A stretch of 64,000 bases of DNA from an uncultured Erysipelotrichaceae bacterium (GCA_902472945.1 CABRQJ010000001.1:1102-65101); one strand, 5' to 3'. Positions 8,146 through 55,095 are shown, counted from the stretch's first letter. Made by a program: numbers and translations. The notes: generated from the sequence alone by a model not told the origin.

Positions 8146-11100
8146 ATGGCTTTAGATAAAGAACAAGAACTTGCCCGCACAATTACCGGCACATCGGTTG
8201 TTGTGTCCGCATCTGCAGGTGCTGGCAAGACGAGTGTACTTGTACAGAGGTTGTTGAAGCGGTGTCTCGAAGATGGGGTGGAACTCGACAGAATTCTCGC
8301 CATGACCTTTACCAAAGCTGCAGCTGAGGAAATGAAGAAGCGCCTTGCGTCTTCTCTATCGGAGCGCTATGCAACTGAAGAAAACAAAGAGAAAAAGCAA
8401 TACATCGAAAGCCAGCTCATCAAGCTGAACAACGCCTCCATCACAACCATTGACTCCTACTGTCTTTCCATCATCCAGAAATATTACAGTGTCATTGGTC
8501 TTGACCCTGCCACAACCGAAAACATTCTCGATGAAGGAAACAGTGCCATATTGAAACATGAAGCCTTTCTCAACACCTTCCAAAAACTGATCAAAACAAA
8601 TCCAGAATCCGCCATGCGCCTTTCTTCCTTTTTCTCTGCCCGTTGTGAGGACTATGAGACATTGGAAGAGACAGTGTTTTCCATCATCACCCATGCCGGA
8701 AGCGGCTATGATCCAGATGCTTTCTATGCCCATGCCCTCTCTTCCTATGGAAACTTTCATGGACTGAAGGACTTCCCGGAAGATATCCGCAATGCTTTCT
8801 TTGACAGCCTGCTTGTCAGAATAGAACGCATGCAGGACACACTGGAAGAAATGGTGAAGATTGCGGATGAAACGGAATCCAAAGCAGATATTGAAAAGAT
8901 TTACGAGAAGAAGATGCAACTGGAGAATTGCCGCAATGCCCTCCTTGCACAAAGCTACCCGGCTTACCAGAATGCCCTTGAAACATGTATTCTCACAGAC
9001 CCACCTGCCGATTCCAAGAATGTGCCCTATTCCACTGTGCGCAAGCAGTACACCGATGGCATGAAGGCATTGTTAAAAGATGCCTATGATGAAAAGATTC
9101 TTGTGGAAGATGTCAGAAAGATGGCACCTGTTGTCAATGACCTCATACAGCTGGCCATTGATACATCAGATTGTTTTTCCACAATGAAGAAAGAACATAC
9201 ATGCATGGACTTTACGGACATGGAGAGGTTTGCTTTAAACATCCTCAATGCCTCAAATGGAGAAATCGCGGATACGATACGCAGCAGTTTTGATGAAATC
9301 ATGGTCGATGAGTTCCAGGACACCAGTGCCCTGCAGAATGCGATCATCGAAAAGATTGCCAAAGCGGATAATGTCTTCCGGGTTGGGGATGTCAAACAAT
9401 CCATCTACCGCTTCCGTGAAGCAGATCCTTCTTTGATGCGCAACCTGATGAAAGACCCTCACCAGCGCTGCATCACCTTACGCCACAATTACCGTTCCAA
9501 ACAGAGTATTGTCGAATTCAACAACCTCCTGTTTGGAAAGCTGCTCAACATCGATGGCTTTGCGGATGCCTATACCGAAGAAGATACGGTATCCATCGGC
9601 AGAGATGCACAGAAGGAAGAACCGGTACCGGTAGAATTTGACCTTGTCAAAGAAGATGAGGAAGGTACAGGTGATAAGGAGAGGAAGGCAAAGTGGATTG
9701 CGGAAAAGATTCTGCTCATGCATGAAGAAGGCAGGGGGTTCAGCGATTTTTGTGTACTTGTGCGCTCTCACAAAAACAAGCTCGTATTGCGCAGTGCATT
9801 TGAAGCCTATGGCATTCCGTATGAAATCGATACTAGAGAGGGTTTCTATAACTCCTCCCTGTGTCTTGAAATACAGGAAATGATCCAGTATATGCTCAAC
9901 CCAAAGGATAACCTCGCCCTTTGTTCTGTATTGACGAGTGGTTTATACCACATGGAAGATGAAGAACTTGCGATGTTGAAGACAGGAAGGGCTACACTTG
10001 TGGCGGGTGTTGCAGAAGAAAGACCTGATATTCCAACTCTATTTGCAGAGTTAAGGAACATTGCCATCAATCGGGGCATTGTGGAAATGTTTCAGGAAAT
10101 TGCAGTTACCAATGATTACTACAACAGGCTCTCCACCCATAACAAAGCAAACTTTGACTTCCTTTTACAAAAGGCAGCTGCCACAAAGTCTTCTACCCTT
10201 TCCGACTTTCTGCGCCTGATGCAGAGTGGCAGTGAAGACCGCTCTTCAGAAGCCTCTTCCCATAAGAAAGATGATGATACGGTACAGGTGGTGACCATTC
10301 ACCAGTCCAAAGGTCTGCAGTACAAGGTGGTGTTCCTCTGGGCGGATAATGAAAACCGGTTTAATGAAAAGATGGACAGGGTTTCGATTCATAACAGATT
10401 GATGCTCGGGGTGCCATACTTTGATGAAACATACCGGTTGTTCCGACCGACGGTGAATCTGATGGCGGTGCGCCATGCAATTGATATGGAAGACCAGCAG
10501 GAGTTTATCCGCCTTCTCTATGTGGCTTTGACAAGAGCGGAAGAGAGGATGTTCATCGTCGATGTACCATCTGATAAACCGATGTCCAAATCGGTAACCC
10601 GGAGTCTTTCTTCCCGCCGCAAAGGCATGTCAGCACTTCTGTTTGCTGGGGGTGTGGGAAATCCCCTCTTCACCATCGAAGAAGTTTCCCTGCAGCATCT
10701 TCCCCCTCTTCCCCCACTTCCTCATACTTTTGTGGATCAATTGCCAAAGTTTGCAATGGATGCACAGCACATTCCACCACTGCACACACCTTCTTCCACA
10801 GAATTTACCACCCTTCCCCCACTGAGTGCCAAAGAGAAGCAGGTGGGAAAACAATATGGTACATATATGCATGAATGCATTGCCCAATTGCCTGACAAGG
10901 TGTGGGAAAAGGAAGATTTCATACCATTCTCCCTTTCTGATCATGACACAGAAAGGCTGATGGCTTTCGCAGAATCTGACATTTACAAGAAGTGTCTTAC
11001 GATGCATATTCACAAAGAAGATCCCTTCTTTGTCATCAGTGAAGATGGACAATATGCGATCACCGGTTCATTCGATATGGTGGCGGAAAATGAGGAAGAA

Positions 11101-20584: not shown

Positions 20585-21097
20585 TCAGGCAAAGAGATTC
20601 CGTTTTGCCAGGGCTTTGGAAAGAAAATAGCCGACGATGACGGAAATGAGTTCTCCAATTGCAACTTCTGTTCCCATGATGACAATGCCAAGGAACAGGC
20701 TGCCCTCAAAGAACAGCACGGCAAGTTCTGTACCGACAAAAAGGAAGTTGAAGACTACCGGCATGAGAATACTCCATACCGGAACACCATGGATTAACTT
20801 CTCTTTCAGATAGTATGTGCATTCTGCCGCAAGGAATGTTGCCAAGGTACCGATCACAGCATCTATGAGACCTGTCGGATTGACACCGAGCATTGCGCCC
20901 AACAGGTTTGTGAGGAAACATCCCAGTGTTACACCATAGATGGATGGCTTGTAAAACAGTGGCAGAATGGTCAGTGCTTCAGCAATTCTCACCTGGATGT
21001 TGCCGAAGGAAAACGGTGCGAGAACGAGTGATATGACCGTGTAGATTGCCGCAATCATGGCAACACGGACAAACGTGCTCATCTTTGTTTTGTTCAT
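20585..21097 (-). CDS. queT: QueT-family queuosine-precursor transporter (ECF-type S component-like, COG4708)
   Basis: About 170-aa, 5-TM protein with the characteristic QueT size and hydropathy. AAGGAG RBS 9 nt upstream. Confidence 0.7.
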   Translation of the reverse strand: MNKTKMSTFVRVAMIAAIYTVISLVLAPFSFGNIQVRIAEALTILPLFYKPSIYGVTLGCFLTNLLGAMLGVNPTGLIDAVIGTLATFLAAECTYYLKEKLIHGVPVWSILMPVVFNFLFVGTELAVLFFEGSLFLGIVIMGTEVAIGELISVIVGYFLSKALAKRNLFA

Positions 21098-22559: not shown

Positions 22560-23402
22560 ATGGCAATTAAAGCAATTTTACTTGATATTGATGGTACGCT
22601 GACCAACAGTAAGAAAGAAATCACACCAGAAACACTTACCGCATTAAAGAATGCGCAGGACAGGGGCATCCGCCTTGTCCTTGCCAGCGGCAGACCTGCC
22701 AAAGGTCTCAGCAACTATGGTGATCTTTTGAACATGTGGATGCACCATGGATTGTTTGTCTGCTACAACGGTGCCCGTGTCATCGATTGTGAAAGCAAGG
22801 AAGTACTTGTTGATGTGACAATCAAACCAGAACTTGTCACAGCAGTTCTTGAACACATGAAGAAGTTCGATGTCATTCCGATTGTGACCTATGGGGAATA
22901 CATGGTTGTGGAAGATGTCTACCACTGCATGGTCAAAAACGGTGATCAGGAATTCAATGTTGTGCAATATGAATCCCGCATGAACAACTACCGTCTCATG
23001 GAATGTGAAGACCTGGCAAAGTTCACAAACTTCCCGGTAAACAAGATTCTCACCGCTGGTGATTCTGACTACCTGCAGGCTCACTGGCAGGAAATGCGGG
23101 AACCATTCAAGGACACACTTTCCTGTATGTTCACATCCAACTTCTATTATGAATACACATCCCTTGGTATTGATAAGGGTGCAGCCCTGAGAGAAGCCAT
23201 GGCAAAACTTGGCATCAAACCAGAAGAATGCATCGCCTTCGGTGATGCGGAAAATGATATTCCGATGCTGGAATATGCCGGCATTGGTGTAGCCATGGGC
23301 AATGCGCAGGACGGGGTCAAAGCCATTGCGGATGAAATTACCTTATCCAATGAAGAAGACGGTATTGCACATTCGCTCTACCGCCATATCGAAGGACTAT
23401 AA
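22560..23402 (+). CDS. Cof-type HAD-IIB phosphatase (sugar-phosphate phosphatase family)
   Basis: Motif I LLDIDGTL, motif II ASGR, and the motif III/IV pair K..FGDAENDIPML. GAGGGG RBS. Confidence 0.85.
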   Translation: MAIKAILLDIDGTLTNSKKEITPETLTALKNAQDRGIRLVLASGRPAKGLSNYGDLLNMWMHHGLFVCYNGARVIDCESKEVLVDVTIKPELVTAVLEHMKKFDVIPIVTYGEYMVVEDVYHCMVKNGDQEFNVVQYESRMNNYRLMECEDLAKFTNFPVNKILTAGDSDYLQAHWQEMREPFKDTLSCMFTSNFYYEYTSLGIDKGAALREAMAKLGIKPEECIAFGDAENDIPMLEYAGIGVAMGNAQDGVKAIADEITLSNEEDGIAHSLYRHIEGL

Positions 23403-23403
23403 G

Positions 23404-23427
23404 ATGCGGATCATTCCGCATTTTTTA
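23404..23427 (+). terminator. Intrinsic terminator after the Cof phosphatase gene (overlaps the 3' end of the convergent deaminase gene)
   Basis: ATGCGGA-TCAT-TCCGCAT followed by TTTTTT. Confidence 0.7.
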
Positions 23428-25735
23428 GTATCGCAAGTATATCTTCTGCAGAATGCAATACATGTACATAGCCTTTCAGGGATTGTGCTTTCTGTTGTAA
23501 CACACGGCTATGTCCATTGATGAAGATATTGTGTCTTGAAAGACCATTGTGGGCTTCCTGGATGAGGTTGTTTGCCGGACTGTTACCATCGAGAACCACA
23601 AGGACATACCTTCTTCTTTTGAAGATTTCTTCACTGATGCCCTTATATAACTCCATCGCTCTTAGTGCTTTGCTTACAAAGACATGTACACCTTCCCTTT
23701 TCAGCCTTTCACATTCCTGCATGGTTAGTTCCTCAGGCACAAAGGCAATGACCGGAATCCTGTCACCACACCTTTCTACCACATATTTTTCATAACCGCG
23801 CAATGTATGTCCCACAACAAAGCATACTTTCTCACCATCCACACCATCGATCAGTTTATCGAGCATTGCCTTTTCTTCCTGATGCATTGTTGTCACATGC
23901 TGGTCGTTGTTGAAACTTCCACCCGCAATCACAATTGGAATTCTGTCATTCATGCATGTGTTTTCAAACACATGCTTTGTCTCTACCATGGCACTACTAT
24001 CGAGCTTTATCACTATTTCTTTTTCCCTTTCAATCTTTTCCCTGTAGTACAAATCAATCGGTTTTCCATGCCTGTCCTGTTCCAATTGTTCTGCTTTTGT
24101 ACGCAAAGCAGCCATACCATTTTCTATGACTCTGTTCTCTGTTTTCTTCATCAGTAAAAGATCTTCTTCATCCAGGTCGAGCAGCCTTTCCAAAGCAAGC
24201 TGTTCATCGATGGAATCTGTTCCGTAGAGTGCTCCACCATCTGTTCCCTGTACACAGGCTACACCATGATGGAGGTATTGTTTTAGTGGATGGTGAGCCA
24301 GGGAACTGAGGTTGTTCAGCCGCACATTGGATGTGATCTGAAATTCCAATATTGCATGACTGTTGTGCAACAGCTCAAGCAGGTGCTTTCCCTTCTTCGA
24401 ATAGAGGTTAGCCGTATATAGACCATGACCAATGCGCACCATTGGCATTGGCTGTCCTTCTTCCATCGTTTCAATAACCATTTCAATACTGTTAGCGACA
24501 TTGTCACGCAGACAGTCATTTTCCCCGGCATGAATGCGGATGACAAAGGAAGGAATGTCTTTAGCAATCGAAACAAGTTCTTTGATCACCGGTTTCAGTT
24601 CCCGGATGTCATTGACTTCTTCACCGAGAATGTCACTACCGGCAATGTATGGGTCATCAGCTATTGCCCGCAATACCTGCAGTCCTTTGGACAGTGTTTC
24701 CTCCCTGTCTTCTTCATTGTTGAGGGCAATCCTTCGTATGCCGGCAAGGAAACGGATGGTCACACCGGTTTCCTTTGTGATTTGTGGCAGGATGGCGTGC
24801 ATTGCACTGAGGTTTGTTAGTGCACTTTCTGCTTTGCACAAGGAAGTATCAGAGATTTCCGCATAGCGTATACCATGTGCTGCATAGTGCCTTGCGATCC
24901 ACAACAGCAAGTCCTGGTACAGGGTGTTGTTTTTGTATGTTGATGAATGGTCAATGACGATTTGTTTTAAGACATGACGAATGGTTTCATCCGGTATGCG
25001 ATCAATTGAGGATAGTTCTATCTTTTGCTTTACAGGACTGCCTTTGGTGAATACGTATCTAAGCTTATAGACTTCTTCAAGGTCCGTAAACACCGCCTGT
25101 CCATCCTTTCTTACAGCCAGGGCAGTGCGGATGCGGTTGATATTGGTCATGGCATCTTCCCGATTCTTTAATAAGAGTTGTGCAAAGCTGATTTCTTCCT
25201 GCGTTGCAGTGCATTTCAACCGCACCTTCTCCATGAAGTCCTTTGGACAGATGAGCTGATGATATATGGCAAGGGCAATATAGATATCTGATGGCAGGTT
25301 GGCATTCATATGGGTGTGAAGGTCACTGTTGAACTTGCAGGAAGCCGGGATGAATGTTTTGACAACAGTTTTAAAAAAGGAAAGGTGGTAGTCCTTTGTC
25401 TGTGACATCAGGGTTTTGGAAATCGCAGGTACGGACGCCCTTTGTTCTATCCTTCCATCCGAATAGATGTTGGCAGCGGTAATATCCCTGAGGGAAAAGA
25501 TATAGACCTTTTCATTATTGCCATTGATAAAACATGGTACCTGTCCACGAATGACAAAGAGACCATCCTTGTTTTTGGAAAGTGGCAGATGACATAGTTT
25601 TGCAAAATTGCGGATGAGGTTGCCGGTTGTGTGGTTAGGCGTAGAAAGGGCATAGTACATGTCTTCGCCTTGTTTATACAATGTGATGACTATGTCCTTT
25701 TCCTTATCCAGGGCAAATTCTTTAAACTTCTCCAT
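23411..25735 (-). CDS. Three-domain protein: unknown N-terminal domain (aa 1-130), an adenosine/AMP-deaminase-fold metal-dependent hydrolase domain (aa ~133-530), and a C-terminal SLOG/LOG-like Rossmann domain (aa ~575-774)
   Basis: All four adenosine-deaminase catalytic signatures are present in order: SDLHTH (H140/H142), IRIHAGEN (H402/E405), VRIGHG (H437), and QGTDGGALYGTD (Asp pair). The C-terminus IPIVIAGGSF..VCFVVGHTLRG..IPVIAF resembles LOG/SLOG nucleotide-binding Rossmann folds. AGGAGG RBS 6 nt upstream. Confidence 0.7.
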   Translation of the reverse strand: MEKFKEFALDKEKDIVITLYKQGEDMYYALSTPNHTTGNLIRNFAKLCHLPLSKNKDGLFVIRGQVPCFINGNNEKVYIFSLRDITAANIYSDGRIEQRASVPAISKTLMSQTKDYHLSFFKTVVKTFIPASCKFNSDLHTHMNANLPSDIYIALAIYHQLICPKDFMEKVRLKCTATQEEISFAQLLLKNREDAMTNINRIRTALAVRKDGQAVFTDLEEVYKLRYVFTKGSPVKQKIELSSIDRIPDETIRHVLKQIVIDHSSTYKNNTLYQDLLLWIARHYAAHGIRYAEISDTSLCKAESALTNLSAMHAILPQITKETGVTIRFLAGIRRIALNNEEDREETLSKGLQVLRAIADDPYIAGSDILGEEVNDIRELKPVIKELVSIAKDIPSFVIRIHAGENDCLRDNVANSIEMVIETMEEGQPMPMVRIGHGLYTANLYSKKGKHLLELLHNSHAILEFQITSNVRLNNLSSLAHHPLKQYLHHGVACVQGTDGGALYGTDSIDEQLALERLLDLDEEDLLLMKKTENRVIENGMAALRTKAEQLEQDRHGKPIDLYYREKIEREKEIVIKLDSSAMVETKHVFENTCMNDRIPIVIAGGSFNNDQHVTTMHQEEKAMLDKLIDGVDGEKVCFVVGHTLRGYEKYVVERCGDRIPVIAFVPEELTMQECERLKREGVHVFVSKALRAMELYKGISEEIFKRRRYVLVVLDGNSPANNLIQEAHNGLSRHNIFINGHSRVLQQKAQSLKGYVHVLHSAEDILAILKNAE

Positions 25736-25750
25736 ATCCTGCCTCCTATA

Positions 25751-25772
25751 GAAAAAACCGCATGAAAGCGGT
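25751..25772 (-). terminator. Weak intrinsic terminator between the TrxB-like gene and the deaminase-fusion gene
   Basis: ACCGC-UUUCAU-GCGGU followed by UUUUUUC. It lies 4 nt after the TrxB-like stop and runs directly into the AGGAGG RBS of the next gene. Confidence 0.5.
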
Positions 25773-25776
25773 CTTC

Positions 25777-26649
25777 TCAGTTCTGATTCATTTTTGCAAG
25801 GTAATCTACAGCAGAAAGTGCCGCAACATTACCCTGTCCAGCTGATTTGATGTACTGGTATGGCTGACCGGTAATATCACCTGCCGCAAAGAAACAAGGC
25901 AGGGTTGTCTTCATGGAAAGGTCTACCACAACCCTGTTACCCTCTGTTTCAAGTCCTGGTACCATCTGTCCCGGGAATTGGGCTTCACGCAGAACGAATA
26001 CACAATCCACCGGATAGGTGTTCTTGTCCGTGCGCAATGCTTCCGTCTTGTTTTCCCCTAGGATTTCCACAGGTCTTTCCCTGATCACTTCTACATCTGT
26101 TTTAAACTCCGGTTCACTGTTATACAGTGGGAAGTAATACACATGTGAGCAGATTTCTCCAAGGAAGTCCGCTTCGCTTTCTTCATGTAAAGAACCACCG
26201 ATGACCGCAACAGCCTTGTCTTTGTAAAGTGGGGCATCACATGTTGCACAATAGCTCACACCTCTTCCAAGCAGCTTTTCTTCATTGGGATATGGCTTAC
26301 CAGCCACCACTCCAGAAGCGAGTATAACAGTTGTGGCTTCAGTAAACTGGTTATCATCTGTCTGTAACATGTAGTAACCACCCATGGCATAGACGGTTGT
26401 GACCTTGTGTTCCGTGATGGAAATGTTCAGCTCTTCGAGTTGTTTTGTAAAGGCGGCTGCCATTTCTTTACCCGTGACGGAAGGAAGGCCAAGGTAGTTG
26501 AGAATCGGATGGTCGACTACCTGCATCTTCCTGGATAAGTCACTGTTCCCAAAGAGAATGATGTTTTTATTTCTTACCTTTGCGGTAATTGCGGCTTTAA
26601 GACCTGCCGGTCCTGTACCGATGATGGCAATGTCATATCTGTTTTCCAT
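25777..26649 (-). CDS. Thioredoxin-reductase-like FAD/NAD(P) oxidoreductase
   Basis: N-terminal DIAIIGTGPAG (FAD GxGxxG), redox-active CATCDAP, and a second Rossmann AVIGGS. At 290 aa it is slightly short for canonical TrxB. AGGAGG RBS. Confidence 0.8.
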   Translation of the reverse strand: MENRYDIAIIGTGPAGLKAAITAKVRNKNIILFGNSDLSRKMQVVDHPILNYLGLPSVTGKEMAAAFTKQLEELNISITEHKVTTVYAMGGYYMLQTDDNQFTEATTVILASGVVAGKPYPNEEKLLGRGVSYCATCDAPLYKDKAVAVIGGSLHEESEADFLGEICSHVYYFPLYNSEPEFKTDVEVIRERPVEILGENKTEALRTDKNTYPVDCVFVLREAQFPGQMVPGLETEGNRVVVDLSMKTTLPCFFAAGDITGQPYQYIKSAGQGNVAALSAVDYLAKMNQN

Positions 26650-29996: not shown

Positions 29997-30809
29997 TCAC
30001 TTCAGTGCATATTTGTAAATAACTTCACTGATCGCATTATCTTCACAAGTTGCCTCAGTGAGCACATCACAGAGCAGTTTCATATCTTTTACCGTATTGG
30101 CTACGCCAATCCCAAGACCTGCAGCCTGAATCATCGGAAGATCATTAAAATTATCTCCTACCGCAATGGTATCCTTCATATCCACACCGAGCATCTCAGC
30201 AAGTTTAGCAAGTCCGGAACCTTTATTGACACCTTTTTTGTTGAATTCAAGATATCTGTTGGACGAATAACTCACATCCATATCCTTTGTCAGGTCTTCA
30301 ATCTCACCGGCAATGGACTTCAGGTAGTCGTAATTTGTATTCTCATAGAGGCATTTGACAATATCTGTACCTCTCAAAAATTCCAGATCTTTGTTCTCAA
30401 TCACAGTAACTGCCTGTCTTCTGTCCAGATAATTGAGTTCATCCTGATTGATGTTGTATGCATAGACAACATCCTTCGTATAGACATGCATACAGACATC
30501 ATATCGCATACCTCTTTCATAGAGCATAGAAGCCTGTTCAAAAGTAATCCCGGCAAAGGGAAGCAGCCTGTTATCCTTATTTTCCGTTATGGCACCACCA
30601 TTGAAAGAAATAACATACCTGCCTTCTCTGCCAAGCTGTCCAAGCTGTTTTAGTGTATCAACCGTCGTCCAGAACGGTCTTCCTGTTGCACAGACAAATA
30701 GTCCTCCGGCTTCTTCAAATGCATGAATTGCCTTAATATCTTCTTCTGATACTGTCTTGTCTTTTCGCAAAAGTGTTTCATCGAGGTCACATGCTATAAT
30801 TTTGTACAT
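29997..30809 (-). CDS. Cof-type HAD-IIB phosphatase
   Basis: IIACDLDETLL, TGR, and K..VGDNFNDLPM motifs. Confidence 0.85.
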   Translation of the reverse strand: MYKIIACDLDETLLRKDKTVSEEDIKAIHAFEEAGGLFVCATGRPFWTTVDTLKQLGQLGREGRYVISFNGGAITENKDNRLLPFAGITFEQASMLYERGMRYDVCMHVYTKDVVYAYNINQDELNYLDRRQAVTVIENKDLEFLRGTDIVKCLYENTNYDYLKSIAGEIEDLTKDMDVSYSSNRYLEFNKKGVNKGSGLAKLAEMLGVDMKDTIAVGDNFNDLPMIQAAGLGIGVANTVKDMKLLCDVLTEATCEDNAISEVIYKYALK

Positions 30810-30811
30810 AC

Positions 30812-31594
30812 TTATTCTCCTTTGATCAAATGATACCGTATGCAGGCTTTACGGACTCCTTCATGATCCACATCATCTGTAATATAGTCGGCAGCTTCTT
30901 TCAATGCTTGTACACCATTTGCCATTGCTATACCGGTTCCAGCATGTTCCAGCATGGCAAGATCATTTCCGCCATCCCCAAACGCCATGGTTTCTTCCAT
31001 ATCAAACCCAAACTTTTTGGCAAAGCAGTCCATACCTTTGACCTTTGTTCCGCCAACAGGAGAAATATCGCAGAAAGTTGGATACCATCTAGCACTGATG
31101 CAATCCGGCAGTTTCTCCATCACTGCCTTTTCTTCCTCTTCATTCAAAAATGCCATAACCTGGTATACCTTTTTATCTTCAATACCCGTTATATCTCCAG
31201 CCGGCTGATCATCATTCAGCGTAATCGCATGAACTTCATCAACCCGCTCATCCCGATAGTTGAATATTTTTCCATCCGGCATTTCAAACCCACAAGGAAA
31301 AGGATGCTTATCCAGCTCTTGTTTCAACAATAACAAGTCTTTCCTGGGAATGGTGTTTTCATAAATCACAGTGCCATCCCGGGTAAAACAATACTGTCCA
31401 TTCATCGTCACATAGCCATCAAAAGGAAACTCTTCCAAAACACCTAGACCATCCCTAGACCTGCCTGTTGCAATAAACAGCAAAATACCGTTTTTCTTCA
31501 ATTCCCATAATGTGCGCAATGTACTTTCCGGTACACGATGTGTAACAAAGCTGACCAATGTACCATCGATGTCAAAAAAGATTGCTTTTATCAT
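30812..31594 (-). CDS. Cof-type HAD-IIB phosphatase (tandem paralog)
   Basis: AIFFDIDGTL, TGRS, and K..FGDGGNDLAML motifs. Start uncertain: ATG at 31594 (MIKAIFFD) versus GTG at 31621. Neither has a well-spaced SD. Confidence 0.7.
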   Translation of the reverse strand: MIKAIFFDIDGTLVSFVTHRVPESTLRTLWELKKNGILLFIATGRSRDGLGVLEEFPFDGYVTMNGQYCFTRDGTVIYENTIPRKDLLLLKQELDKHPFPCGFEMPDGKIFNYRDERVDEVHAITLNDDQPAGDITGIEDKKVYQVMAFLNEEEEKAVMEKLPDCISARWYPTFCDISPVGGTKVKGMDCFAKKFGFDMEETMAFGDGGNDLAMLEHAGTGIAMANGVQALKEAADYITDDVDHEGVRKACIRYHLIKGE

Positions 31595-31665
31595 GTTTTT
31601 ATTGTACCCATCCAGGTACACTCACCTCTCTTTATTTTGCTAATATCACCACAGGAGGTAATCAT

Positions 31666-48858: not shown

Positions 48859-51800
48859 TTATTCAGCTTCTTTTCTGCGCCTTCTCAGGATCATAACACA
48901 TGCCATACCTCCCGCAAGCAGTACACCTGCCCAGAGTCCGGCATTTGCATAGTTACCTGTACCTGGCTGGTTTGTGGAAGATGTCTTTACAAATTCTGCT
49001 TTGATTTCAATGTTGCCATTGACCGCAAATGCCTTGATCAGAATTTCTCCTGTCTTTGCATTGTATGTAAAGCTTTCACTTGCAAGTTCATTGCCACTCA
49101 CAAATACCTTGATGCTTTCTGGCAGGCTATAACCTTCTGCAGGTTTGAGGACTGCCTTATAGTCTTCACCACGTACTGCTTCAGTTAGAGACACTGTACC
49201 ATTTGTTGAAGAGAGCTTCACACTGAACTTCTCCACAACCGGTGTGAGTGCCTTGAACGCTGCACGAATTTCCACATTGCCAGTCACTGCCTCTGCATTG
49301 ATAGTCAGTGTACCAGTCGTAGCATCATAGCTGTACTGATCAGATGTTAATGCAATGCCATTCACAAGGACTGTTACAGTTTCTGGTAATGCATAACCTT
49401 CTGCTGCCTGCAATTTTGCGGTATATGCTTCACCACTTACTGCTTCAAATGCGCCAACAAGTGTTCCGTTTTCTGCAGAAATGGTTACCGTGTACTTATC
49501 CTTGACTGGTGGATTGACTTCTGCTGCCTTGAACGCTGCACGAATTTCCACATTGCCAGTCACTGCTTCAGCATTGATAGTCAGTTTACCAGTAGTAGCA
49601 TCATAGCTGTACTGATCAGATGTTAATGCAATGCCACTAACAAGGACTGTTACAGTTTCAGGTAATGCATAACCTTCTGCCGCCTGCAGTGTTGCGGTAT
49701 AGGTTTCTCCTTCTGTTGCTTCTTTGGATCCAACAAGTGTTCCGTTTTCTGCGGTGATGGTTACCGTGTACTTGTCTGGTGTTACCGCTTTGATTTCTGA
49801 CCTGTCACGGACACGGAGTCTGTTACCACCCGCATCATGGGATACAAAGCCGATAGCACTGATCTTAGCACCTTCTTTGACAAAGTCTTCCAATGGTTTT
49901 GAACTTTCATCGGAATAACCGATGTAGCCATCGATGAATACACGTGCTTCTACACCACTTTCATCTTTTACCAGAATGCTTTCCACAAGACCTTCAGCTA
50001 CTGTCACTTTTGTGACAGTACCTTCAACTCTCACGAGTCTGCCAAAGTTTGTGGCATAGTCATTTGCTTCAGCTGTGGTGACATCACTGATCACTACATC
50101 TTTAGAACCTTCCAGTACGGTGACATTGATGGCAGAAAGCTGTTTGTCACCAATGTATTCACTGATGGAACCTGTAATCTGTACCTGGTCTCCACGACGG
50201 ATGTTGCTGTCATCAATCGGGAAGACGTTGATACCATTACCTGCATCATCCTGGATGTAGATGGTATTGAAGAATGCATTGCCGCTTTCTGCTGTACCGT
50301 TGGCTACTGTACCAACAACGGTGAACACATCACCATTAGCACCAGCTCTTGCTTCTGTGATTGTGCTGATGACTGGTTCTTTCTTGACCATGTTCAGGAT
50401 GTTCTGTGCCATGATGCCATTGGAGTAGCTGACCTGATCTTCGGCTGCTACTTCAAAGTTGGAACAGAATACAGTACCAGAGACAAAGACTCTGCCTTCT
50501 CCTACCTGTTCTGTTGCCATGGCAACAACATCACCCTTCTGGACAACAGCTTTATCTGGATCATATGGATCACTATAGCTCATCACTGGCTTATCATGAC
50601 CTTGTGCAGGATTCTTACTGTTGATGGAATATGTTGTATCATGTCCATAAACAATAGCTGTACCACTTCCAACACTGATGGAACATCCAGAATAGGAACT
50701 ATAGGCTAGACCAGAGTCAACAACACCAGCCAGCACTTTCTGTACAACAGGATCGGTACTTCCTGTATTGAAGTCATCGAAGTAGAGACGATATGGCTGA
50801 CCACCATTTTTATCCTGATCAATGAGTTCATCATCATTGACCCTCATCGTAGATCCAATACCCTCAAGCAATGCATTTGCCTGCTTATAAGTTGTATGTG
50901 GCAAGCCACTATTAGCGTCCTGGTAGTCCGCTAGACCGCAGACAATCACGGTTCCACCACGCTTTACATAGTCGCTGACAACCTGGATGAATTCCTTTTC
51001 GAATACACTTGGTACTGCATCACCGGTATAGTCACTTGTGTACTTGAGTGGTGAAGAGATGACAAACAGAGAAACATCTTTGAGTGCATCTGCTGTGATT
51101 GTTTCACCAGGCTGTGCAATGCGTACCTGGATATTATCGGCAGTACCCATATTGATGAAGTTTGTCATATTGCCAGAGTAGTAGCCATTGACATAGTCAT
51201 TGTAGTGTGTGCCATCAATGAGTACCTTTGTCGCAATGGCAGGATCTGATACTGTCAGTTTCAGAACATCTGTAAATGTGAATTCTTCACCATTGATCAA
51301 TGCCTTCATCTGTACATTGATGTTGAAACCACCTGCAGTACCTGCTACATAGTCGAATGCATATGCAGCAGAAGTTCTTGCGCCGATGACACCACTGTTA
51401 CCAAGACCTGTTACATCTGCTGTATGGAATGGTTCTGTTTCACCTTCCATAGTATAGGTGAGCGATGTAACCGTCATATCCGTACTCAGGTTGTTATAAA
51501 TCTGGCTGGAGATTTCAATTTCATCACCCTTGATTGGTAATGCCACACTGCTATCGGTGTTGGAAACACCCGCATTGACACTTTCACCAACCCATACTGG
51601 TGCAGTTACGGCAATGTTCTTATCTGCCTGTGTTACACGCAGATAGTAGTAACCATAAGTAGATGGAAGATCATCGAATGTAATGTCTGCACTTGTGCCT
51701 GTAAAGGTTGTTTCCGCAAGTGTCTGACCACCATTGACAATGACTTCTACCTTTGTTTCACCTTCTGTATCCGTTGGATCTTCAATAGAAGCAGTGATAT

Positions 51801-54800
51801 TGATGGAATCCTGATCAGGAAGAATAGAACCCATCGCATTGCCATTCAATGCATAGAGAATGGAAAGATCATTATCTTCTGTCGCATAGACACGATAGTT
51901 CTTCATCGCATCATAGATCGCTGCTTCTGAAAGATCAGTTGCCAGTACGACACTTCTTGCTGTGTTGGAATCACCCCAGTTACCCTTATGGTTATCCTGG
52001 TTGTTTGTTGGTGCTACATGCCATCCCTTATCCAATGCACGTGTGTAATATGCATAAGATGGGAAGTAACCAGAACTGCCGATTGCACCTTCACCATTAC
52101 CAACTTCGATCAATGTCATCTGGTTATCGATCACCGGATCATAGAGGGCAAAATCCATGAAGTCACCGAATGTATCACCTGGATGGTTAAACTGGGAAAT
52201 GGTTTCCGGATTCTCATTCAATGTATCGAAGTAAGCCTCCAGTACATCGTAGTTATCACCTTTGCGGTATGGTTCAGCATTGCGGTTTTCAAAGCCCTCA
52301 GAATTGAATGTATTGATATGACCAGGTGCACCACCAGACCATGTCATCTCAAAACCATACAAACCGACAAAGTCATCTTCACGCTCTGTAATATCCCTTG
52401 CGCCCTGTCTGCCTTCATGCCATGAAGCATTCTTCTTTTCCGCATCTTCATCACCAAGATGTGTAGTTCCAGCAGATGGCAAACCACTCTGTCCTTCAAA
52501 AGAATTGGAATGGTCTGTCAAAGCAAGGAAGTCGAGGTTTTCTACAGAAGACGCATGATCAAATGCCTGTTCTACCGTACCTGTACCATCAGAAAGATTG
52601 GTATGGGCATGGAGCTGACCAAAGTACAGTGTATAGTCACCAAGACTCATCGGTGCCTTATAGGTAAATGTAACTACTTCACCCTGCTCTGCCTCAGCAG
52701 TATCAGTTGCTGGAATATAGGCAAATGCCTTGATAATAACCGGCTTATCCTTTTCAGGTGTATTTTCAATCACAATTGGTGTGCTGTACTTCTGTTCATC
52801 CTTCACTTCCGGATCAGCAGGTTCAGTACCATCTGTTGCCATCGTGTAGTAAATCTCTGCACCTGTTGCGGCAGTCAATGTAATTTCCTGTCCTGCTTCA
52901 ACACTGGCACCACTCTTAGGAGAAGCCTCTACAGAAAGACCTTCTACCTCTGGTTTATCTGGTTCTGGCATATCCGTAACAACATAGAAGGAAAGCTGGA
53001 ACTGAGCATCGGATGCGGCACTACTTGAATTGTATGTACTCCAGTTACTGTACTGGTCATACCATTCCATATAATTGCCACGACCTGTATTACGGATGTT
53101 GTATAATCCATCACCAAGGTCAATCACTTCCCAGTCATCATTCACGGCACCAAGATCCATACTGGAATGGCTCTCTGCCAAACCAATATTCTGTCCATTC
53201 TGGGCAAAGCTGTATGTACCATCCTCATTAGCAATAACAGTCCATACATCTTTTTCTCCATAACCTGTTACGACACCATCCGTAACGGTGATGTCTGTAC
53301 CAACATTGTAGAAACTTGTCTTTTCAGAAGACAGTGCCTTGTTATACGAAGGGGCATAAATGACTACATTATCACCATCTTCGATTGGTCCTTCTGGTCC
53401 TGGAATATCTGTTACAGAATAGAACTTCAAAGCAAACATGCCTTCACTGCCAGAAGCGATGTTGTTGTATGCACTCCAGTAATTTCTGTCCGCATACCAT
53501 TCCATATAGCTGTCACGTACCGTGTTCTTGACGTAATAGCATCCATCTCCGGCATCTTCAAGCACCCACTTATCGTTCTTTCCACCAAGTGGCATACTGG
53601 TATAGGTATCTTCCATACCAATGTTCTGTCCTTGATAGGAGAAGCTGTATGTACCATCCTCATTGACGGCAACAGTCCATACATCCACTTCACTATATCC
53701 GCTAAGACTGCCATCAGCACCTACTGTAATATCCGTACCAGCATTGTAGAAACTGCTTACTACTTTAGTGGACAATGCCTTGTTATACGCAGGGGCAAAA
53801 ATAACTACCTGCTCACCATCTTTGAGTGGTCCTTCTGGTTCTGGTGTATCCGTTACAACATAGAAGGAAAGCTGGAACTGATTATCGGATGCGGCACTGC
53901 TTGAATTGTATGTACTCCAGTTACTGTACTGGTCATACCATTCCATATAATTGCCACGACCTGTATTACGGATGTTGTATAATCCATCACCAAGGTCAAT
54001 CACTTCCCAGTCATCATTCACGGCACCAAGATCCATACTGGAATGGCTCTCTGCCAAACCAATATTCTGTCCATTCTGGGCAAAGCTGTATGTACCATCC
54101 TCATTAGCAATAACAGTCCATACATCTTTTTCTCCATAACCTGTTACGACACCATCCGTAACGGTGATGTCTGTACCAACATTGTAGAAACTTGTCTTTT
54201 CAGAAGACAGTGCCTTGCTATACGCAGGGGCATAAATAACTACCTGCTCACCATCTTTGAGAACAGGTACCTGTACATCTGCTTTGACGGTATATTGCAG
54301 AGTTTGTACAGCACTGCTGTTTTCACCAACTACTGCTACTGCCTTTAATGTGCAGTCTGCTTCAATGACCGGTTTGTTTGTGTCACTGTAGATCTGCCTG
54401 TTGGCATTCGTTGTATCAGATGGGTCGCTGCCATCTAATGTGAAATAGATGGTTGCGTCTAATGTTGCAGAACTCAGGGTGATTTGGGTGCCAGATTCTA
54501 CTTCTCCAGCCTGAGGATCTGCAGCAGGTGCAGCAACCGTAACTTCTCCACTTCCTCCATCACTCAGCTTATAGAGTGTGAACTGATGTGGATAACCGTT
54601 GGGATTACCATTAACAGTTGTTGTCTTGTAGCCACGGAATTTGTTCTGAGAGTTTTTGTTGCTGGCGAGGTAGACGGTATCTGCACCAGTTCCTGCAAAG
54701 GTAAACTTTCCCTCTGTTTCTTCCCATGTCCAGTCGTATGCACCTTCAGTTATGCCATTTTCATTGCCACCTTTTGGTGCAAGGTAAACATCATTTTTGT

Positions 54801-55095
54801 CCTTGATTCTGACAGATTGTCCATTCACTTCCAATGTGACATAGGATGTGGAATGCACAACATCATTTTCTGGTGTTGTTTCAATCGCTGTCACCCATGT
54901 TCCATCTAGTTCACCAACGGCATAATTGGTGTCTGTCAATAGAACATATTCGCCTGTTTCAAGTTCTTTACTAGTTGTGATTTTCTGATAGGTTTTCGCA
55001 TCCTCAGCAAATACTGCACGAGGACCAATGGAAAACAGCATCAGAATTGCCATGACAACAGACAAAATTCTTTGCATGCTTCGCTTCAGTTTCAT
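48859..55095 (-). CDS. 2078-aa secreted, wall/membrane-anchored multidomain protein. Signal peptide; chitobiase/hexosaminidase-C-like and beta-sandwich repeat modules; PHP-family metal-dependent phosphoesterase domain; OB/lamin-tail-like domain as in extracellular nucleases; three C-terminal Ig-like repeats; QPGTG plus hydrophobic anchor plus RRRRK tail
   Basis: N-terminal MKLKRSMQRILSVVMAILMLFSIGPRAVFA. PHP motif LHAHTNLSDG..ALTDH. Internal repeats A-B-A of ~146 aa and three ~96-aa Big-like repeats. The C-terminus NQPGTGNYANAGLWAGVLLAGGMACVMILRRRRKEAE resembles a sortase-type sorting signal. Confidence 0.8.
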   Translation of the reverse strand: MKLKRSMQRILSVVMAILMLFSIGPRAVFAEDAKTYQKITTSKELETGEYVLLTDTNYAVGELDGTWVTAIETTPENDVVHSTSYVTLEVNGQSVRIKDKNDVYLAPKGGNENGITEGAYDWTWEETEGKFTFAGTGADTVYLASNKNSQNKFRGYKTTTVNGNPNGYPHQFTLYKLSDGGSGEVTVAAPAADPQAGEVESGTQITLSSATLDATIYFTLDGSDPSDTTNANRQIYSDTNKPVIEADCTLKAVAVVGENSSAVQTLQYTVKADVQVPVLKDGEQVVIYAPAYSKALSSEKTSFYNVGTDITVTDGVVTGYGEKDVWTVIANEDGTYSFAQNGQNIGLAESHSSMDLGAVNDDWEVIDLGDGLYNIRNTGRGNYMEWYDQYSNWSTYNSSSAASDNQFQLSFYVVTDTPEPEGPLKDGEQVVIFAPAYNKALSTKVVSSFYNAGTDITVGADGSLSGYSEVDVWTVAVNEDGTYSFSYQGQNIGMEDTYTSMPLGGKNDKWVLEDAGDGCYYVKNTVRDSYMEWYADRNYWSAYNNIASGSEGMFALKFYSVTDIPGPEGPIEDGDNVVIYAPSYNKALSSEKTSFYNVGTDITVTDGVVTGYGEKDVWTVIANEDGTYSFAQNGQNIGLAESHSSMDLGAVNDDWEVIDLGDGLYNIRNTGRGNYMEWYDQYSNWSTYNSSSAASDAQFQLSFYVVTDMPEPDKPEVEGLSVEASPKSGASVEAGQEITLTAATGAEIYYTMATDGTEPADPEVKDEQKYSTPIVIENTPEKDKPVIIKAFAYIPATDTAEAEQGEVVTFTYKAPMSLGDYTLYFGQLHAHTNLSDGTGTVEQAFDHASSVENLDFLALTDHSNSFEGQSGLPSAGTTHLGDEDAEKKNASWHEGRQGARDITEREDDFVGLYGFEMTWSGGAPGHINTFNSEGFENRNAEPYRKGDNYDVLEAYFDTLNENPETISQFNHPGDTFGDFMDFALYDPVIDNQMTLIEVGNGEGAIGSSGYFPSYAYYTRALDKGWHVAPTNNQDNHKGNWGDSNTARSVVLATDLSEAAIYDAMKNYRVYATEDNDLSILYALNGNAMGSILPDQDSINITASIEDPTDTEGETKVEVIVNGGQTLAETTFTGTSADITFDDLPSTYGYYYLRVTQADKNIAVTAPVWVGESVNAGVSNTDSSVALPIKGDEIEISSQIYNNLSTDMTVTSLTYTMEGETEPFHTADVTGLGNSGVIGARTSAAYAFDYVAGTAGGFNINVQMKALINGEEFTFTDVLKLTVSDPAIATKVLIDGTHYNDYVNGYYSGNMTNFINMGTADNIQVRIAQPGETITADALKDVSLFVISSPLKYTSDYTGDAVPSVFEKEFIQVVSDYVKRGGTVIVCGLADYQDANSGLPHTTYKQANALLEGIGSTMRVNDDELIDQDKNGGQPYRLYFDDFNTGSTDPVVQKVLAGVVDSGLAYSSYSGCSISVGSGTAIVYGHDTTYSINSKNPAQGHDKPVMSYSDPYDPDKAVVQKGDVVAMATEQVGEGRVFVSGTVFCSNFEVAAEDQVSYSNGIMAQNILNMVKKEPVISTITEARAGANGDVFTVVGTVANGTAESGNAFFNTIYIQDDAGNGINVFPIDDSNIRRGDQVQITGSISEYIGDKQLSAINVTVLEGSKDVVISDVTTAEANDYATNFGRLVRVEGTVTKVTVAEGLVESILVKDESGVEARVFIDGYIGYSDESSKPLEDFVKEGAKISAIGFVSHDAGGNRLRVRDRSEIKAVTPDKYTVTITAENGTLVGSKEATEGETYTATLQAAEGYALPETVTVLVSGIALTSDQYSYDATTGKLTINAEAVTGNVEIRAAFKAAEVNPPVKDKYTVTISAENGTLVGAFEAVSGEAYTAKLQAAEGYALPETVTVLVNGIALTSDQYSYDATTGTLTINAEAVTGNVEIRAAFKALTPVVEKFSVKLSSTNGTVSLTEAVRGEDYKAVLKPAEGYSLPESIKVFVSGNELASESFTYNAKTGEILIKAFAVNGNIEIKAEFVKTSSTNQPGTGNYANAGLWAGVLLAGGMACVMILRRRRKEAE
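49234..49811. repeat. Two near-identical ~288-bp tandem repeats encoding Ig-like (Big) domains near the C-terminus of the surface protein
   Basis: CTTGAACGCTGCACGAATTTCCACATTGCCAGTCACTGC...CATAGCTGTACTGATCAGATGTTAATGCAATGCC appears at ~49249 and ~49537. Confidence 0.75.
52975..54300. repeat. Intragenic tandem duplication in the surface-protein gene. Two near-identical DNA copies (>=330 bp each, 876-bp period) flank a diverged middle copy
   Basis: Shadow ORFs 53013..53231 and 53889..54107 (also 53075..53263 and 53951..54139) translate identically, so the nucleotide sequence is identical over hundreds of bp at an 876-bp offset. Confidence 0.8.

Follow-up and report, generated by a model that had tools for sequence, protein, structure and literature searches.

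A gut and rumen bacterial protein family joining an adenosine deaminase-fold core to a SLOG-fold domain and an orphan N-terminal domain

The gene and its domain plan

We analyzed a 64,000-nucleotide (nt) stretch of DNA from an uncultured Erysipelotrichaceae bacterium (GCA_902472945.1, CABRQJ010000001.1:1102-65101; this whole stretch is called the window below), which carries a gene for a 774-amino-acid (aa) protein that fuses an adenosine deaminase (ADA)-fold core to a C-terminal Rossmann-like domain with the SLOG fold. The complete open reading frame (ORF; 23411..25735, 774 aa plus stop) begins with ATG and lies on the minus strand, stops being found throughout the plus-strand translation of the same interval; it has full-length homologues at 49-99% identity. 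An earlier interpretation of this DNA, made without database searches (the sequence-only reading), had given the same coordinates and length and left the strand unstated. All features of the gene and its leader described below are on the minus strand. From the N terminus, the protein consists of an N-terminal domain core (aa 1-100; 25436..25735), a pre-barrel segment (aa 101-136; 25328..25435), the ADA-fold catalytic domain (aa 137-532; 24140..25327), a linker (aa 533-595; 23951..24139) and the SLOG-fold domain (aa 596-774; 23414..23950).

Profile searches, alignment and fold modelling bear out the three-part plan proposed in the sequence-only reading, namely an orphan N-terminal domain, an ADA core with an intact catalytic set and a C-terminal SLOG domain. 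All of the motif strings quoted there, including four C-terminal beta-strand strings, are present in the minus-strand translation; the numbering of some residues had been off by one, as SDLHTH occupies aa 137-142 and the Asp motif QGTDGGALYGTD aa 496-507, with IRIHAGEN at aa 399-406 and RIGHG at aa 434-438. About 430 of the 774 residues fall outside the canonical ADA fold. They are conserved at least as well as the core and make up two well-folded, strongly conserved domains plus an insertion, with no family model for any of them. We concluded that the three-domain ADA-SLOG protein is a real and widespread enzyme family of gut and rumen bacteria.

The deaminase core

The core is an amidohydrolase TIM barrel. 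As had been expected for the middle domain, it matches PF00962 (A_deaminase) above the gathering threshold, with E=4e-16 and 59.4 bits against a cut-off of 27 for the whole protein and E=5e-17 for the isolated core. The match spans only aa 280-529 (profile positions 77-305); the profile does not reach the HxH strand because a family-specific insertion of about 140 aa (aa 143-279; 24899..25309) separates that strand from the rest. The insertion holds an invariant KDGQAVF plus E220, Y223 and R226-YVF, and in most homologues it contains 32 extra residues. Among PDB chains, phmmer found classical ADAs only (6n9m, 6n91 and Plasmodium ADAs), and a search of PDB sequences with the family profile retrieved only ADA and ADA-like proteins, with no match to RdrB, Cad1 or AMP deaminase even at E<=10. 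Pfam AMP_deaminase does not match the protein either.

The catalytic signatures follow one another in the canonical order, as the sequence-only reading had it. The putative metal-binding HxH motif, H140-T-H142 (25310..25318), is invariant; it pairs with the HxH of ADA only in a sub-threshold stretch of the phmmer alignment (-2.6 bits). The likewise invariant H402-A-G-E405 (24521..24532), which would supply a metal-binding His and the catalytic Glu, lies inside the Pfam match. R434-I-G-H437-G (24422..24436), with the predicted catalytic His, aligns residue for residue with the RIGHG of ADA 6n9m (R434, G436, H437 and G438 are invariant), and in T498-D499-G500-G501 (24233..24244), also invariant and read as GTDG[YFS]G in distant relatives, T498-D499 stands opposite the T-D of the ADA sequence 'NTDDP'. 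Alignment of 21 diverse full-length homologues shows no change at H140, H142, H402, E405, H437 or D499, the apparent equivalents of ADA H15, H17, H214, E217, H238 and D295. The 'Asp pair' of the sequence-only reading is only half there: the metal-binding Asp is kept as D499, while the canonical second Asp is missing and D507, which had been counted in its place, is 8 residues downstream. The position of that second Asp (D296 of ADA, the purine N7 contact) is taken by the invariant Gly G500 in the family and in its distant relatives, and the residue after HxH that corresponds to D19 is Asn. Judged from these alignments, the deaminase catalytic set is intact and equivalent in position to that of ADA, except for the D296 to Gly change.

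A simple explanation would be an ordinary housekeeping adenosine/deoxyadenosine deaminase whose extra domains serve only structure or oligomerization. The source annotations ('adenosine deaminase'), the classical ADAs as closest solved relatives by sequence, and the housekeeping-like genomic context described below all agree with it. However, the NCBIfam ADA equivalogs (TIGR01430/PRK09358) score far below their cut-offs (best 42.3 bits versus 216-549), more than half of the protein lies outside the canonical fold at a conservation equal to or above that of the core, the loops of the putative SLOG pocket are invariant, and both D296 and the D19 equivalent are changed. We consider this explanation very unlikely.

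The N-terminal domain

The sequence-only reading had recognized no motif in the first 130 or so residues, and we found none: aa 1-136 have no match in Pfam and no sequence match in PDB. This is nevertheless the most conserved part of the protein, with a mean column identity of 74%. The AlphaFold2 model of the domain, with a pLDDT of 87.8 over its whole length and of roughly 90 or more for aa 1-100, is confident and shows three strands, one helix and about six more strands. A Foldseek search with the model gave nothing significant (best E 0.065, TM <=0.31). A kinase relationship was considered and rejected, since the Gly-loop, Lys and Glu signature of kinases is absent and the topological resemblance is weak. 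According to the model, the N-terminal domain is a fold with no significant structural or sequence relative. The pre-barrel segment, whose pLDDT is lower in a model that lacks the barrel, holds the invariant residues P103, K107, LMSQTK (aa 109-114), Y116, K126 and K134-F135, and it may line the substrate entrance or bind phosphate or substrate.

The C-terminal SLOG domain

The linker that follows the barrel is variable and partly helical, with low conservation and modelled helices at aa 546-555 and 560-570. The AlphaFold2 model of aa 545-774, built from a 31-sequence alignment (mean pLDDT 90.2, pTM 0.79), is a seven-stranded Rossmannoid of alternating beta strands and alpha helices. The domain has no Pfam match at E<=10 and no match in the PDB profile search; it was recognized by fold search alone. 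The matches (scores in brackets) are the Chlamydomonas Moco carrier protein 2iz5 (13.6), TM1055 1rcu (13.1), DprA 4ljk (12.6), LOG 5ajt (12.1), ShosA 8zva (11.8), several entries of the TRPM2/5/8 MHR1/2 region (10.4-11.5), the PpnN/YgdH-type protein 9us2 (11.1), the SLOG domain of ThsA with 3'cADPR, 7uxs, at rank 23 (9.1), and YpsA 2nx2 at rank 29 (8.7).

The assignment of this domain to the LOG/SLOG/DprA type in the sequence-only reading thus holds for the fold and fails for sequence membership in any described SLOG family. At E<=10 there is no Pfam match to LOG (PF03641), LDcluster4 (PF18306), DprA (PF02481), YpsA (PF06908) or LSDAT, and in hhalign comparisons of the domain profile with E. 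coli PpnN and with a Solobacterium LOG the probabilities were below 1%. The LOG motif PGGxGTxxE is absent, the topologically corresponding loop reading L-D-G-N-S-P-A-N-N-L-I-Q-E-A. From the lack of similarity to PpnN and LOG in hhalign and the absence of this motif, we describe the domain as a sequence-orphan SLOG clade. Solobacterium-type genomes that carry the fusion contain a separate gene for a canonical LOG as well (L087:9942-10487, matching PF18306 and PF03641), so the fused SLOG domain is not simply the LOG enzyme of the organism.

Three loops of the domain are strongly conserved. The Gly-rich loop after strand 1, A604-G-G-S607 (23915..23926), has invariant G605, G606 and S607 within an invariant P600-x4-G605-G-S607 pattern; most distant relatives retain it as AGGS[YF]. 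G647-Y-E649 (23789..23797; E649 invariant, G647 at least 90% conserved), where the helix following strand 2 begins, recalls the SLOG GxD/E motif, for which positional equivalence would have to be assumed; GxD/E is the predicted nucleotide-binding motif of the YpsA clade (PMC6459960). The D716-G-N718 loop after strand 5 (23582..23590) continues into N723..Q726-E-A728..N730, where D716, G717, N718, N723, Q726, A728 and N730 are invariant and E727 is at least 90% conserved. The conservation of the AGGS, G-x-E and DGN loops suggests a maintained ligand pocket, and it is reasonable to regard the SLOG domain as a candidate ligand sensor.

The fold matches also raise the possibility of a bifunctional catabolic or salvage enzyme, in which SLOG would act as a LOG/PpnN-like N-glycosidase on an adenine nucleotide, possibly N6-modified, and the ADA domain would deaminate the released base or the nucleotide. 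The net result would be the conversion of AMP or of m6A/i6A-type nucleotides, from RNA turnover or plant cytokinins, to hypoxanthine and ribose-5-phosphate. The best structural matches include LOG (5ajt, 5wq3) and PpnN/YgdH (9us2), an invariant acidic residue is located in the helix that follows the DGN loop, and with Gly in place of D296 the purine pocket would be expected to be larger or otherwise changed. Purines from plants and nucleic acids are plentiful in the rumen, and a DNPH1-like N-hydrolase gene adjoins the deaminase gene in one lineage and PNP and nucleoside importer genes in others (see below). The reading is weakened by the loop itself, which has DGNSxxxNxxQE in place of PGGxGTxxE, and by the lack of both hhalign similarity to PpnN or a bona fide LOG and a Pfam LOG-family match. 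On balance we regard it as quite improbable.

Distribution and phylogeny of the family

The full-length search listed 120 clusters at 90% identity, nearly all of them full-length (761-845 aa, with one 612-aa fragment); the few names on these clusters are 'adenosine deaminase' or 'hypothetical'. A scan with two family-specific peptides showed that at least 538 GTDB species encode a relative, a lower bound obtained with one genome per species; most of them are Bacillota of the rumen and gut. The best 80 of these are almost all rumen or gut metagenome-assembled genomes and Hungate isolates, and they include Erysipelotrichaceae/Solobacterium, Lachnospiraceae, Ruminococcaceae/Oscillospiraceae and Coriobacteriaceae/Atopobiaceae. 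Among the carriers in culture are Lachnospiraceae FE2018, Ruminococcaceae P7 and Oribacterium WCC10. The closest among the genome matches listed, at 76%, is from an uncultured Erysipelotrichaceae bacterium. The 'singleton' of the sequence-only reading is accordingly apt for a gene with no partner and inapt for a family of this size.

In a neighbour-joining tree of 80 members the grouping is largely by taxon, and the window protein forms a separate deep branch with that of L001. All Coriobacteriia/Atopobiaceae copies make up one clade nested among Clostridia, with local synteny common to L015, L024 and L028. This is consistent with one ancient inter-phylum transfer followed by vertical descent.

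The fusion itself is exclusive. When a hidden Markov model (HMM) of the SLOG domain was run against 1.84 billion representative proteins, 169 matches were found at E<=1e-3, mostly fragments, and every long match has PF00962 N-terminal to the SLOG match. This SLOG clade is retrieved only behind ADA, so that the two domains are a co-evolved unit, and the clade is no sensor module passed from one effector to another. The distant relatives (P0192, P0198, P0200, which is also locus L082, P0207 and P0268; 773-1012 aa) keep TDLHxH, R[IV]HAGE, RIGH[GA] and GTDG[YFS]G. They are rich in Lys, Asn and Glu and have long low-complexity inserts and C-terminal tails, with the ADA plus SLOG order and the core motifs retained; such a composition suggests very AT-rich genomes.

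The locus and the upstream region

The deaminase gene lies 41 nt downstream of a thioredoxin-reductase-like (TrxR-like) gene on the same strand and converges on a gene for a Cof-type HAD hydrolase. Wider neighbours in the window are QueT, CitMHS, Fe-ADH and VanY genes on one side and DUF3169 and ABC-2 transporter genes on the other. The GC content of the gene (0.44-0.45) is that of its flanks.

An AGGAGG ribosome-binding site (25742..25747) is found 6 nt upstream of the ATG, preceded by an intrinsic-terminator-like hairpin (25751..25778) with an 11-bp stem and a U-tract, which overlaps the stop codon of the TrxR-like gene. Both elements had been noted in the sequence-only reading, where the terminator was called weak; at -16.3 kcal/mol, with z = -3.4 and 0 of 200 shuffled sequences as stable, it is not. 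Hairpins occur at the equivalent position in the two closest relatives (L001:9959-9980 and L086:6870-6896). The stems differ (GACCGC / AACCGC / AGCCGCAUC) and the structure is kept, which points to compensatory change preserving the hairpin. There is no sigma-70-like site between the TrxR-like gene and the deaminase gene, and it is reasonable to suppose, as was remarked before, that the upstream terminator limits basal expression to a low level.

The TrxR-like gene was considered as an operon partner and rejected. A relative with an 84% identical TrxR-like protein has the same order of TrxR, ADA, HAD, QueT and VanY genes; in relatives at 72-75% identity, MarR or thioredoxin genes come next after the TrxR gene, and the deaminase gene is found elsewhere in the same genome (L088 and L073 are one assembly). 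The adjacency is thus seen only in L001 and L086, and a terminator stands between the two genes. The TrxR-like gene is probably not a functional partner.

At Rfam gathering thresholds the whole 64-kb window has no match, and it contains no tRNAs and no CRISPR repeat. By Rfam, no preQ1 riboswitch precedes the QueT gene (20585-21097, minus strand), and a riboswitch was found neither elsewhere in the window nor in 11 loci whose leaders are long. Cof-type HAD (Hydrolase_3) genes in the window lie at 22560-23402 (plus strand) and 29997-30809 (minus strand), both confirmed by Pfam; a third at 30812-31621 (minus strand) is deduced from the syntenic tandem pair in L086, where the same arrangement recurs. 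A Cof-type HAD gene directly precedes the deaminase gene in L049 and L061. The window also carries a very large ORF of 2078 aa at 48859-55095 (minus strand).

Gene neighbourhoods and mobility across relatives

Neighbouring genes were clustered by all-against-all comparison of 972 flanking ORFs from 79 loci with flanks of up to 10 kb. No neighbour is conserved among them, and synteny is found only within small lineages. The largest cluster, an ABC-F-like ATPase in 15 of the 79 loci, was rejected as a partner because it is generic and about 3 kb away; the other large clusters (MatE, Na/Pi-PhoU, SDR, TrmO, HAD, amidase, PTS and GH32) are generic as well. Pfam assigns the 133 immediate neighbours to 108 families of at most 4 members each, a heterogeneous and housekeeping-like set. 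PADLOC models gave only scattered single matches on these neighbours (11 very large ones were left out of this test), including radical-SAM proteins to pVip models, and no defence-island enrichment was seen across about 90 homologous loci. In tblastn searches against 50,697 phage and 72,556 plasmid records, only weak matches to the ADA core were obtained, and a scan of IMG/VR found no family member.

The only functionally suggestive neighbours are genes of nucleoside metabolism, in about 3 of about 90 lineages. In one Clostridia lineage (L083:4218-12460, also L084 and L085) the deaminase gene is the last gene, on the same strand and 61 nt after a PNP operon of the order PNP_UDP_1, Bmp, ABC_tran and two BPD_transp_2 genes, for nucleoside uptake, with thymidine kinase and uridine kinase genes divergently upstream. 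The same nucleoside transporter is found upstream of position 10001 in the Oscillospiraceae locus L070. In an Erysipelotrichaceae lineage (L093:6488-6946) a gene for a 152-aa DNPH1/NDT-like PF05014 protein, with the DNPH1/Rcl-type motif 'YFAGSIRGGR', lies 54 nt upstream of the deaminase gene on the same strand; by BLAST this arrangement is in no other sampled locus. Residence in purine-salvage operons, which the sequence-only reading would have taken, if constant, as the mark of a routine metabolic module, is found in these few lineages and not elsewhere.

The sequence-only reading had proposed a candidate ligand-gated, nucleotide-depleting deaminase after the manner of a conflict-system effector. 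In its explicit form this would be a single-gene anti-phage effector of the abortive-infection type. A nucleotide signal arising from infection, such as an ADPR/cADPR-like molecule or a nucleotide made by the phage, would be sensed by SLOG, and the deaminase would then be switched on and turn ATP/dATP into ITP/dITP in the manner of RdrB and Cad1. RADAR (PMC9994260) and Cad1 (PMC11645235) provide established cases of ITP-producing ADA-fold effectors, and in Cad1 a Rossmann-like sensor is also coupled to an ADA domain; the SLOG domain of ThsA, 7uxs among the fold matches, senses 3'cADPR. The terminator and ribosome-binding site upstream are consistent with low basal expression, and carriers are scattered and tied to particular niches, at least one transfer between phyla having taken place. 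Against this, the fusion protein has no PADLOC match even at E<=1, and the PDB profile search did not relate its sequence to RdrB or Cad1. About 90 loci show no conserved signal-generating partner, and the immediate neighbours are not enriched in defence genes. The family is absent from the phage, plasmid and IMG/VR collections, synteny is lineage-stable and the tree tracks taxonomy, GC is host-like, purifying conservation is strong (as in the N-terminal domain), and among the HMM matches this SLOG subtype is never combined with another effector. With no partner, island, mobility or shuffling, and with stable synteny, host-like GC and purifying conservation, placement in a conflict system is unsupported, and we regard an anti-phage effector as rather unlikely.

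Interpretation

We tentatively favour, at a little less than an even chance, a ligand-regulated adenine nucleoside or nucleotide deaminase of purine homeostasis or salvage, with SLOG as an allosteric nucleotide-binding module, analogous in function to the regulated AMP deaminase of eukaryotes or the AMP nucleosidase of Proteobacteria. In such an enzyme the ADA-fold core would catalyze metal-dependent hydrolytic deamination of the adenine ring to the inosine form, and we infer that its substrate would more probably be a phosphorylated nucleotide (AMP, ADP, ATP or the deoxy forms) than a free nucleoside. SLOG would bind a nucleotide-derived small molecule and tune the deaminase allosterically, and the N-terminal domain with the invariant Lys-rich pre-barrel segment could cap the active site or mediate oligomerization. 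The physiological role would be purine-nucleotide homeostasis or salvage by a stand-alone, chromosomally stable enzyme that is found in anaerobes of the gut and rumen and is not part of a multi-gene immune system.

Several observations weigh against this proposal. Salvage genes accompany the deaminase gene in so few lineages, and no purine-type riboswitch was detected upstream by Rfam in the window or the long-leader loci. A niche-restricted, cross-phylum distribution would also be expected of an accessory or conflict gene, and a terminator just before the ribosome-binding site would lower basal expression, as expected for a potentially toxic enzyme. The D296 to Gly change and the very high conservation of the orphan N-terminal domain are not explained by a routine salvage role. 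An ATP-directed deaminase would need tight gating, which is the very logic of Cad1 in defence.

What is new is the fixed, presumably regulatory architecture of this ADA-family enzyme, together with its two domains that no family model covers; databases call it only 'adenosine deaminase'. The interest of the family is moderate at present and would be high if gated ATP deamination proved true. Either way, the family is a natural system in which to find out what this orphan SLOG clade binds and what the new N-terminal fold does.

Comparison with known systems

Classical ADA (Add, PF00962; 6n9m, 3ewc) is the closest solved relative by sequence and has the TIM barrel, HxH, HAGE, RIGHG and metal-binding Asp in common with the fusion protein. 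The fusion protein is about 430 aa longer, owing to the orphan N-terminal domain, the insertion after the HxH strand and the C-terminal SLOG domain, and it differs at the D296 and D19 equivalents (invariant Gly and Asn, respectively).

Cad1 is the CARF-adenosine deaminase of type III CRISPR systems and converts ATP to ITP in a ligand-gated manner (PMC11645235). Like the fusion protein, it joins a Rossmann-like ligand-binding domain and an ADA-fold deaminase through a long linker in one polypeptide; its sensor, however, is an N-terminal CARF domain that binds cA4/cA6, whereas that of the fusion protein would be the C-terminal SLOG domain, with an extra N-terminal domain besides. No CARF match was found on the fusion protein with Pfam or PADLOC, and there are no cas genes among the 10 flanking genes scanned. 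RdrB of RADAR (PMC9994260) is an ADA-fold protein with large family-specific additions that acts on ATP/dATP and not on adenosine. Large additions to an ADA fold are common to RdrB and the fusion protein, but RdrB works with the adjacent AAA+ ATPase RdrA and has no SLOG domain, and the fusion protein has no such neighbour: no conserved RdrA-like ATPase partner occurs in the 79 loci, and the window neighbours are the TrxR-like and HAD hydrolase genes. Neighbour and profile searches thus uphold the statement of the sequence-only reading that the gene has no cyclase, Cas10 or RdrA partner and an architecture different from those of RdrB and Cad1. If the substrate were ATP or dATP, the RdrB/Cad1 principle would be extended to a new sensor class. 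In the boldest version the protein would be an immune or stress switch complete in itself: its private SLOG domain would detect a nucleotide-derived alarm molecule and release an ATP/dATP-to-ITP deaminase, a third independently evolved route to growth arrest by ITP after RdrAB and Cad1. We think this unlikely; if true, hundreds of rumen and gut species would have, fixed in their core chromosome, a switch with a new sensor class and a new fold-orphan N-terminal domain.

The fusion protein has the SLOG-type fold in common with the SLOG superfamily (LOG/PpnN, the TM1055/Moco-carrier group, DprA, ShosA, ThsA-SLOG, YpsA and TRPM MHR1/2), but its SLOG domain lacks sequence membership and the corresponding HMM retrieves only ADA-fused proteins. 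In Thoeris, ThsA couples SLOG to a NADase effector (SIR2 or Macro) and is encoded next to the TIR protein ThsB, whereas the effector of the fusion protein is ADA and neither a Thoeris-like TIR gene nor any other recurrent partner gene was found in the 79 loci. In Kongming, the PF00962 deaminase KomA acts on adenine nucleotides, with dAMP preferred, in a bacterial immune pathway (10.1101/2024.12.20.629578). Membership in PF00962 is the likeness here; the difference is that KomA consists of an ADA domain alone and shares its operon with KomB (HAM1-like) and KomC (SIR2-like), while no HAM1 or SIR2 gene is found in the window or among the recurrent neighbour families. In the searchable full-text literature, which does not extend to the 2015 SLOG survey, we found RADAR, Cad1, Kongming and reviews and no description of an ADA-SLOG fusion, so that, automatic 'adenosine deaminase' names aside, the suggestion that the protein may be undescribed stands within that literature.

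The functional analogy that we favour is with eukaryotic AMP deaminase and bacterial AMP nucleosidase, large, multi-domain and allosterically regulated enzymes that remove adenine nucleotides, the former with an ADA fold. The fusion protein differs from them in having no Pfam AMP_deaminase or PDB AMP deaminase match and unrelated regulatory domains, and the analogy is put forward as a hypothesis about function with no claim of homology. To our knowledge, neither of these two enzymes occurs in Bacillota. Should SLOG gate the deaminase, the fusion protein would represent a new control of the adenine-nucleotide pool in this group.

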